Positions 54,039 through 55,347 of a DNA stretch of 64,000 nucleotides are shown in pieces. Made by a program: the position numbers and the translations under genes. Each line of letters opens with the position of its first letter. Positions within the stretch are counted from its first letter, which is position 1. The notes under the pieces were generated by a model that saw only the letters and a list, made by a program, of their open reading frames with translations, searched no databases and was not told the DNA's origin. The stretch is from Escherichia coli. Its GTDB lineage: Bacteria; Pseudomonadota; Gammaproteobacteria; Enterobacterales; Enterobacteriaceae. The stretch lies in assembly GCF_001677475.2 (NCBI RefSeq), contig NZ_CP015229.1. One strand, written 5' to 3'.

Positions 54039-54530
54039 TTAGTGAGTAATACATATGAAGCGTGGTGTCCTGCCTGTAGAGAATACGTAGTTATAATCAT
54101 TTTGACGCGTAACATAATAATTAATTGAAGTGTCTGCTTTTATGAAGAAATCAGAAGTGATATTTTCAAGGACTTCATCGCTAATGTTATCATCTTTTTG
54201 TATTTTTTGGATTTTAACTGTGGTGAGATAAACGGTATCACGGAATTTCTTGTATGTAAAACTCACATATCGGCGGATGAAGCCCATCTTTTTTCCATCT
54301 ACCGTGTATGCACCCGTGAGATACATGTTTCCTGTGTTATTTTCAGAAATCATATTTAACGAAAAATATTGATCCATTTTTGTATGATCGGTGAAATTAA
54401 TAACATGGGCATTACATGATATGTTTTGCTCTGCTGGTTCATTAGCATGATGAAACGCAATATGGCTCAGAATTGCTGCAATAAAAGCACATAAAATTAT
54501 TCCCGCAAACAGAAAATATCTTTGAGTCAT
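54039..54530 (-). CDS. ToxS/PsaF/YqeJ-like small membrane-anchored periplasmic protein
   Basis: 163-aa ORF with a single N-terminal TM (YFLFAGIILCAFIAAIL); 4 bp after the upstream ToxR-like gene. Confidence 0.55.
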   Translation of the reverse strand: MTQRYFLFAGIILCAFIAAILSHIAFHHANEPAEQNISCNAHVINFTDHTKMDQYFSLNMISENNTGNMYLTGAYTVDGKKMGFIRRYVSFTYKKFRDTVYLTTVKIQKIQKDDNISDEVLENITSDFFIKADTSINYYVTRQNDYNYVFSTGRTPRFICITH

Positions 54531-54534
54531 ATGA

Positions 54535-55347
54535 TTACTCCGCTTTATAATAGAGAGAGTTGCAATTATTTGGTGATTCAGAGTTTAACATTTGACTACA
54601 GGTGAAAGCATAAAACCCGCTCATGCTATCATTTGTTGCAATGTAAATGTAAGGATGTATTTTGCAGTTGACTTCCATTTTCTGCAATTTTTCAATAATC
54701 GGTGATAGCATGTCTACGGAATTAAAGTATTTATTATCATAGAAATAACTGCATCCTTCCTGAGTAGGGTGTTGAGCATAATTTGAGAAAGCATCTATTT
54801 TTTTTATAGTGTGGGATTTGCTTTGAAAAGCCATATCGAAAAAATAAGAAGATATATACACTATCCCCCATGCTGCAAAAAAACAAACTATAAGCAATGT
54901 ATTCTTTGTAGTAAATATACTTTTTGCAATGTGATTTTCATTTATATTTCCAGTGTGGGTGCCATTCTCTTCACTCTCAACACTTTCATTCTCATTGTGA
55001 TTATTGTCGAGAACAGTTATGTTGATTTCTTCATTGATTTTGAAGCCTTTCCGTGGCACCGTTCTGATAACATCATTAAATATCGTCGCTGAGCTGATTT
55101 CACGAAAGGAACGCCTTATCATCGATATATTTTGATATAAAGTGTTGGTTGCGACTTCGGCACTGCTATCGCTCCAGACTTTTTCAAAGAATTGATTGTG
55201 TGACACGACACTATAAGCGTTATCTAAAAGTAACTTTAAGCATTTTCCCGCAGGATAAGTGAGTATCACTTCCTCTGATGTAAGGAGTGATGTTAACTTA
55301 TTAGATGATGAGTTGAATCTTACTTCATCATTTATAATGTAGATCAT
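54535..55347 (-). CDS. ToxR/CadC/PsaE-like membrane-bound transcription regulator
   Basis: 270-aa ORF: N-terminal OmpR/PhoB-type winged helix (ILTYPAGKCLKLLLDNAYSVVSHNQFFEKVW ... IRTVPRKGFKI), central TM (TLLIVCFFAAWGIVYISSYFF), about 100-aa periplasmic tail with Cys residues. Confidence 0.65.
   Translation of the reverse strand: MIYIINDEVRFNSSSNKLTSLLTSEEVILTYPAGKCLKLLLDNAYSVVSHNQFFEKVWSDSSAEVATNTLYQNISMIRRSFREISSATIFNDVIRTVPRKGFKINEEINITVLDNNHNENESVESEENGTHTGNINENHIAKSIFTTKNTLLIVCFFAAWGIVYISSYFFDMAFQSKSHTIKKIDAFSNYAQHPTQEGCSYFYDNKYFNSVDMLSPIIEKLQKMEVNCKIHPYIYIATNDSMSGFYAFTCSQMLNSESPNNCNSLYYKAE

Follow-up and report, generated by a model that had tools for sequence, protein, structure and literature searches.

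We consider a 64,000-nucleotide stretch of the Escherichia coli contig NZ_CP015229.1 (RefSeq assembly GCF_001677475.2), called the window below, in which two adjoining genes at 54039-55347 encode a predicted membrane-tethered regulator and its predicted periplasmic partner. With high confidence, the locus is the grvA-fidL operon of an O-island-47-type island, carried here as a non-O157 allele, and the pair is a member of the co-component ToxR/ToxS-VtrA/VtrC superfamily and of its YqeI/YqeJ-MarT/FidL subfamily. The regulator is identical to GrvA of O157:H7 Sakai (ECs_1274) at 264/270 residues (98%), and the partner matches Sakai ECs_1273, annotated as 'FidL-like protein', at 157/163 residues (96%). 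The gene order is that of Sakai on both sides: pgaABCD, ycdT/dgcT, pdeT (vmpA), fidL, grvA, an oxidoreductase of the short-chain dehydrogenase/reductase (SDR) type, five fimbrial genes, a gene for a 207-residue protein and a two-partner secretion (TPS) haemagglutinin. O-island 47 is published as z1528-z1556 with grvA as z1531, and the locus in the window is its left part. The allele is closest (98.5-98.8% DNA identity) to those of pig, baboon, gull and O145 strains, and it therefore comes from a non-O157 background.

RefSeq labels these proteins, in genomes carrying the same DNA, as 'winged helix-turn-helix domain-containing protein' and as 'YqeJ family protein', 'FidL' or 'FidL-like protein'. 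A novel or uncharacterised regulator pair is rejected on the basis of the two Sakai identities; both the pair and its ToxR/ToxS-type architecture have been described previously for these very genes.

The grvA orthologue (270 residues, ATG start) occupies 54535-55347 and the fidL-like partner (163 residues, ATG start) occupies 54039-54530. The original prediction, made from the sequence alone, had reported open reading frames (ORFs) of these two lengths separated by 4 bp, and both are found where it placed them; it gave no strand, and both lie on the minus strand. Reading along that strand, the junction (54531-54541) consists of a GGAG (54538-54541) just 5' of the partner start codon, the TAA stop of grvA, a 4-nt spacer (54531-54534) and the partner ATG. 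No terminator-like site is found between the two genes, and in diverged homologues they overlap by 8 nt. The junction suggests a single operon, in which translation may be coupled. The GC content of the region is 34%, compared with 49% for the window, and because the region is so AT-rich, long open frames are improbable by chance. Neither ORF is a chance frame, as is clear from the Sakai matches and from full-length matches to K-12 YqeI (32% identity, E 4e-38) and K-12 YqeJ (23% identity, E 1e-18).

These last matches also turn the resemblance in size to YqeI/YqeJ that the original prediction had noted into true homology, the pairs being full-length paralogues. A protein nearly identical to the partner carries precomputed Pfam assignments to PF27292 (YqeJ_C) and PF15941, while a Pfam-A profile search with the window partner itself gives no match; for the regulator the NCBIfam models give only generic winged helix-turn-helix matches, far under their cut-offs, and for the partner they give no meaningful match.

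The architecture of GrvA can be followed from its N-terminus. An OmpR/PhoB-type winged helix-turn-helix domain, predicted to be cytoplasmic, covers residues 25-103 (55039-55275, minus strand; Pfam PF00486, Trans_reg_C, E 4.1e-11), and its closest PDB sequence match is the Vibrio cholerae ToxR DNA-binding domain (PDB accession code: 8b4b, E 3.8e-7), which ranks above PhoB-type regulators. A single transmembrane (TM) helix is predicted at residues ~151-169 (54841-54897, minus strand; Kyte-Doolittle 19-residue maximum 2.03); it is the only such segment in the protein, and a lysine-rich sequence lies on its N-terminal side. The predicted periplasmic domain follows at residues ~173-270 (54538-54831, minus strand). 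It contains four cysteines (C199, C228, C250 and C262) that do not vary among 8 family members or among 25 paired sequences, and it is modelled by AlphaFold2, within the fused model described below, as beta2-alpha-beta3 with pLDDT 83-93. This is the order described by Kinch et al. 2022 (PMC9214523) for GrvA, YqeI and VtrA. Conservation is uneven along the protein: against the Pseudocitrobacter homologue the winged helix, which is the best-kept part, is 77% identical, the linker and TM segment 18%, and the periplasmic domain 40%. This divergence fits the label 'fast-evolving' used by Kinch et al. (PMC9214523).

The partner begins with a predicted TM helix at residues 3-29 (54444-54524, minus strand; hydropathy maximum 2.51 at residues 6-24, modelled helix 3-29), so that each protein has a single strongly hydrophobic 19-residue window, in agreement with the one TM segment per protein and the winged helix in the larger one that had been predicted from the letters. 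Residues 37-162 (54045-54422, minus strand) are modelled as a periplasmic eight-stranded lipocalin-like beta-barrel with C39 on the first strand and C160 on the last. The model has a pLDDT of 95.3, and when it is compared with the PDB by Foldseek the top 7 matches are all ToxS or VtrC, in structural alignments with 5-16% identity. A profile of 69 FidL-family sequences finds no match among PDB sequences; the kinship with ToxS and VtrC is visible at the fold level only. The family is divergent and has few members: 83 representatives reach E <= 1e-3 among 1.84 billion clustered proteins. Among the 69 sequences C39 (strand 37-47) never varies and C160 (strand 155-162) is kept in at least 90%, and such a cysteine pair between the N- and C-terminal strands is the disulfide signature of FidL-like proteins according to Kinch et al. 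(PMC9214523). One mark of the superfamily is an adjoining, co-oriented partner gene, and here that gene encodes, as modelled, an N-terminal TM helix followed by a VtrC/ToxS-type barrel. The ToxR/ToxS-like architecture proposed at the outset thus finds its counterpart in both proteins, with the ToxR DNA-binding domain as the top PDB match of one and the ToxS/VtrC fold of the other.

We next consider how the two proteins may interact. The two periplasmic domains were modelled as one chain, joined by a 30-residue linker, with 25 paired sequences from the collected loci. Each of the two domains is modelled with confidence and the linker as disordered, and the pTM (predicted TM-score) is 0.78, which hints at a packed GrvA-FidL heterodimer. 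A model of the GrvA/FidL complex has been published, and the periplasmic domains of YqeI and YqeJ dimerise when they are co-expressed (Kinch et al. 2022, PMC9214523). Combining these with what is described for VtrA/VtrC and ToxR/ToxS, we propose that GrvA would be an inner-membrane protein whose winged helix lies in the cytoplasm, binding DNA at the membrane, and that its periplasmic domain would form a heterodimer with that of FidL. The FidL barrel might then bind a hydrophobic cue from the host or the environment, a bile-salt-like or lipid ligand being possible, and FidL would thereby set the activity and/or the stability of the membrane-tethered GrvA, possibly by shielding it from proteolysis.

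The known function of GrvA comes from O157. Reviews and papers on co-component systems describe it as a ToxR-family regulator that RcsB switches on within a pathway responsive to bicarbonate. GrvA raises the expression of ler and of LEE, the enterocyte effacement locus, together with adherence, in an indirect manner, through lower GadW-dependent gadE expression (O157:H7 TW14359 and Sakai), and it represses glutamate-dependent acid resistance (GAD) in exponential phase. According to the reviews, the grvA promoter is a direct site of RcsB action. The DNA upstream of grvA in the window can be compared with this. Its best sigma-70-like candidate promoter is TTCACA-18-TATACT (55425-55454, minus strand; 10/12 positions in a consensus scan), with the -35 element TTCACA at 55449-55454 and the -10 element TATACT at 55425-55430, although matches of this kind are not above chance in such AT-rich DNA. 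When the upstream regions of E. coli, Pseudocitrobacter and a metagenomic relative are aligned, the 680-bp spacer between grvA and the SDR gene is poorly conserved across genera except for a footprint at 55449-55481 (minus strand). This footprint overlaps the -35 element and contains an RcsB-box-like sequence, TAAGAATAATCTTG (55467-55480), and a repeat of CAGATAATTC. The footprint fits the reported direct control by RcsB, and its conservation suggests that an RcsB input is older than the O157 lineage. The same spacer holds a 194-bp segment (55550-55743, GC 46%) that E. coli has and the other genera lack; each genome carries one copy, Rfam has no match for it, and its folding z-scores (-0.1 and 0.0) give no signal.

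Several points weigh against parts of this picture. The RcsAB-box-like element TAAGAATAATCTTG is an 11/14 match to the consensus, and with 8 such matches in the window against 4.5 expected it is not significant alone. The statements on GrvA function rest on reviews, and the LEE effect may be irrelevant in this strain if it has no LEE, as seems likely for many non-O157 carriers. The TM helices and the topology of GrvA, like those of the partner, are predictions. Support for the heterodimer is indirect, consisting of the pTM and the published models. A fold search with the fused model, aimed at the periplasmic chains of ToxR and VtrA, returned ToxS and VtrC alone and gives the GrvA periplasmic fold no separate structural match. 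Finally, the barrels of VtrC and ToxS bind bile salts, whereas no ligand is known for FidL or YqeJ.

We turn our attention to the neighbouring fimbrial genes. The pair had been predicted to lie beside a chaperone-usher operon; the operon is real, but a divergent SDR gene stands between the two. The operon (56965-62923, minus strand; ORFs and RefSeq annotation) encodes a pilin (62363-62923), a chaperone, an usher, a 444-residue fimbrial protein and a second chaperone. The 444-residue protein (57651-58985, minus strand) matches the Salmonella StbD model at E 3.7e-33, and the order of the five genes is that of stbABCDE; the O-island 47 fimbriae are therefore Stb-like. The intervening gene (56028-56819, plus strand) encodes a KduD-like SDR oxidoreductase that reaches 296 bits with the NCBIfam KduD models, under their curated cut-off. 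K-12 yqeI also has a divergent kduD upstream of it, about 5 kb away, which may be the trace of an old segmental duplication or a coincidence. Directly upstream of the pilin gene is a low-GC (32%) ORF of 207 residues (62966-63589, minus strand) with no Pfam or NCBIfam match. It occupies the position typical of EcpR/MatA-type fimbrial regulators, and we regard it as a candidate operon-specific fimbrial regulator of an undescribed family. A comparison with YqeH gives a BLASTP E of 11, and an alignment with YqeH/GerE-type proteins has an hhalign probability of 19% over 58 columns, too weak to use.

These genes travel together as a module. The order 207-residue ORF, pilin, chaperone, usher, 444-residue protein, chaperone, divergent SDR, GrvA-like and FidL-like is shared by Pseudocitrobacter sp. 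RIT415 (L005) and a metagenomic enterobacterium (L012-L014), with different genes past fidL. The SDR gene is present in every copy of the module, and the 207-residue ORF is kept in all copies at 53-55% identity. Between E. coli and these two relatives identity is 72-90% for the fimbrial proteins and the SDR but only 49-56% for the low-GC genes, which are the 207-residue ORF, GrvA and FidL, so that the putative regulatory genes either evolve much faster than the structural ones or were exchanged. One further record, a 2.5-kb contig (L034) in a metagenome-assembled genome (MAG) labelled 'uncultured Clostridium sp.', holds a fimbrial chaperone, the SDR gene and the start of grvA. Its chaperone and SDR match those of the window at phmmer E ~1e-154 and ~1e-180 and all 37 residues of GrvA that it holds are identical, and it is almost certainly E. 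coli DNA that was mis-binned into a Clostridium MAG.

To place this arrangement in its family we use a scan with one genome per species, which gives 27 loci, 23 of them with an intact pair and counted here. A usher gene, classical or Ecp-type, lies within 10 kb of the pair in 10/23 loci, against an expectation that we take to be about 6%, an estimate from the roughly 12 usher genes in K-12 and not from a matched control. The binomial tail is ~3e-7, or ~2.5e-6 after collapse to 17 contexts (8/17), a figure limited by the fact that the 23 loci are related and not phylogenetically independent. In two further loci the direct neighbour of the pair is a TPS haemagglutinin or a trimeric autotransporter adhesin. 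More distant pairs, too, are found by fimbrial operons: one at 49% identity (L010) adjoins an Ecp/Mat-type operon, and one at 32% identity (L011) is close to a further operon of the chaperone-usher kind.

The family loci yield some observations of their own. Loci L010 and L012 share what appears to be the same site, with LysR-UbiD-flavoprotein-DUF554 flanks, where the regulator pair stays but the fimbriae are of different types (Ecp/Mat and Stb-like). A second GrvA/FidL-like cassette lies no more than 6 kb from the first, in tandem or divergent, in L015 and L017 (Trabulsiella), L024 (Citrobacter sedlakii) and L029 (Ca. Pantoea haifensis), where the second copy looks split; similar paired cassettes are described for Salmonella STM0341/0342 and STM0344/0345 by Kinch et al. 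(PMC9214523). Mixta species (L036 and L037; ~9962-10483) have GrvA-like proteins of 160-173 residues that match over the winged-helix region only (query residues 1-108), with no adjoining FidL-like gene. These short genes are divergent from a chaperone-usher operon, and their products may be soluble relatives that act as fimbrial regulators.

The question is then whether the Stb-like operon is under the control of its neighbour. Direct control by GrvA, perhaps via or together with the 207-residue ORF, would be one form of the idea, and it is possible, though we put it somewhat below an even chance, that the operon is a local and perhaps ancestral GrvA target. The broader explanation, to which we give a little less than half of our belief, is that the pair is primarily a local switch that senses an environmental cue and turns on the Stb-like fimbriae in the manner of PsaE/PsaF, as the original prediction had suggested, and that its LEE and GAD effects are secondary; this is compatible with the identity of the locus as grvA-fidL and would simply add an output to it. 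Several observations speak for it. The module is intact in Pseudocitrobacter and in the metagenomic enterobacterium despite other flanks and a regulator identity of about 50%; other family members stand beside Ecp/Mat-type or other chaperone-usher operons, as the 10/23 loci with ushers indicate, or beside the TPS haemagglutinin and the autotransporter adhesin; and in E. coli the pair occurs together with the operon, the former in 410 and the latter in 401 of 5426 genomes. Characterised relatives act on adjoining adhesins (PsaE/PsaF and MyfE/MyfF on fimbriae, MarT on misL), and the published LEE regulation is indirect.

The same explanation meets a number of difficulties. Between grvA and the 3' end of the operon lie the SDR gene and about 1.6 kb, and the distance to the promoter end of the operon is about 7.6 kb. 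Near the fimbrial genes the conserved repeat of the grvA promoter, TCAGATAATTC, is not found again, its 23 matches in the window comparing with 16.6 expected. No usher gene is near the pair in 13/23 family loci, YqeI/YqeJ included, and the enrichment in the others is measured against an estimated background in related loci. Linkage within one mobile island can, moreover, last without functional coupling. The literature search found no experiment on GrvA and fimbriae and no report linking GrvA to the O-island 47 fimbriae, this cluster being cited only as an adhesin cluster, and a search by the fimbrial locus tags gave nothing useful.

As far as that search showed, the proposal of a fimbrial switch is new, and we consider it plausible; its comparative support is more than anecdotal, though circumstantial. 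A more speculative extension, which we hold with still less assurance, is that GrvA-FidL and the 207-residue ORF were originally a dedicated fimbrial switch, that the cassettes of the YqeI/GrvA family are portable, fast-evolving 'adhesin switches' travelling with fimbrial, TPS and autotransporter loci, and that LEE and GAD control would be a secondary rewiring, with the direct sites lying within the island. A true fimbrial target would account for the activation of one among the numerous 'silent' chaperone-usher operons in E. coli, and it would make the virulence role of GrvA a derived one. If it is false, the locus is a known system that has been correctly recognised.

The alternative is that the pair is a global regulator only, acting from Rcs through GrvA to lower GadW/GadE and so to LEE, and that the fimbrial neighbours are hitch-hikers in an acquired island; this, too, we think quite possible, if short of probable. 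All published functions are indeed LEE, GAD and adherence, the island is a mosaic that also holds pdeT/vmpA, TPS and fatty-acid/polyketide-type genes, and no motif link to the fimbrial promoters is found. The distribution of the pair is harder to accommodate. It is present in 410/5426 complete E. coli genomes, with full coverage in 407/410, and one of the 410 matches is on a record labelled as a plasmid; the fimbrial operon is present in 401/5426. Most carriers are O157:H7, O55:H7 or O145:H28, and the others are isolates from pig, baboon, gull, mink, frog and freshwater; the window allele is nearest to those of this second group and of O145 strains (98.4-98.8%). The range exceeds and contradicts the statement of a 2024 review that grvA is 'exclusively distributed'. 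A role centred on LEE cannot explain why the module is kept in other genera and in E. coli outside O157, O55 and O145:H28. The enrichment of the family next to adhesin operons and the indirect nature of the LEE effect also stand against a purely global role.

A different kind of alternative concerns the partner, which might act mainly as a stabiliser that shields the periplasmic domain of GrvA from regulated proteolysis rather than as a sensor of any ligand. ToxS is known to play such a role towards ToxR, as is TcpH towards TcpP. In both domains the conserved cysteines that form disulfides recall the redox- and protease-sensitive periplasmic domain of ToxR. We nevertheless find a stabiliser without sensing unlikely, as the nearest structural relatives of the partner, VtrC and ToxS, both hold bile salts in their barrels (according to the PDB titles), and the roles of stabiliser and sensor are compatible with each other.

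It is very improbable that the cassette has fallen silent and is now a decaying remnant with no current function, a view sometimes taken of K-12 yqeI/yqeJ: a GC content of 34%, typical of H-NS-silenced DNA, and the fast divergence between genera would agree with it, but the ORFs are intact here and in Sakai, 407/410 carriers have full coverage, the 90%-identity clusters of GrvA (995 members) and FidL (409 members) have full-length representatives of 270 and 163 residues, the structural cysteines are all invariant, and the published phenotypes of a grvA deletion in O157 largely refute it.

Elsewhere in the window, pgaA (47859-50282, minus strand) carries a TGG-to-TAG change at 48027-48029 (W752*), by which the last 56 of the 807 residues of this export porin are lost; the comparison is with an E. 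coli reference, at 97.9% DNA identity and with no indels. The strain may be defective in the export of poly-N-acetylglucosamine (PGA), or the stop may be a sequencing error. The three Rfam matches at gathering score are a cspA thermoregulator (7430-7852, plus strand), naRNA4 (18536-18613, minus strand) and Ysr251, an antisense RNA located at the 3' end of phoH (43851-44044, minus strand), all ordinary for Enterobacteriaceae.

It remains to compare the grvA-fidL pair with the systems that are known. GrvA has been a named virulence regulator of enterohaemorrhagic E. coli since 2005, and GrvA/FidL was put in the ToxR/ToxS-VtrA/VtrC superfamily in 2022. Kinch et al. 2022 (PMC9214523) list GrvA (ECs_1274)/FidL (ECs_1273) as a co-component system and a paralogue of YqeI/YqeJ, and another paper on co-component systems places GrvA-FidL among the 'coTTRs' with ToxRS, VtrAC, PsaEF and YqeIJ. 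The window pair shares with Sakai GrvA/FidL the lengths of 270 and 163 residues, the 4-bp junction and the flanking genes on both sides; it differs in an allele of about 97% DNA identity to that of O157, with six amino-acid changes in GrvA and six in FidL, most of them located in the linker or at the surface of the barrel. Compared with VtrA and ToxR, the GrvA periplasmic domain is without their C-terminal helix, and compared with VtrC and ToxS, the conserved cysteine pair between the N- and C-terminal strands belongs to FidL-type barrels. With YqeI/YqeJ of K-12, a part of the remnant of ETT2, the second type III secretion system of E. coli, the pair shares four conserved cysteines in the regulator and two in the partner, which align; that system differs in its chromosomal site, follows yqeH, which encodes an EcpR_N-type regulator, and has no fimbrial operon nearby. 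Kinch et al. (PMC9214523) treat YqeI/YqeJ as the orthologue of MarT/FidL from Salmonella pathogenicity island 3 (SPI-3), which belongs to the same subfamily and whose MarT activates the adjoining adhesin gene misL. PsaE/PsaF of the Yersinia pH6 antigen, of which PsaF is tied to VtrC only at a borderline sequence level by the same authors (PMC9214523), and MyfE/MyfF have the same architecture as the pair in the window, and those pairs control the chaperone-usher operon that adjoins them.

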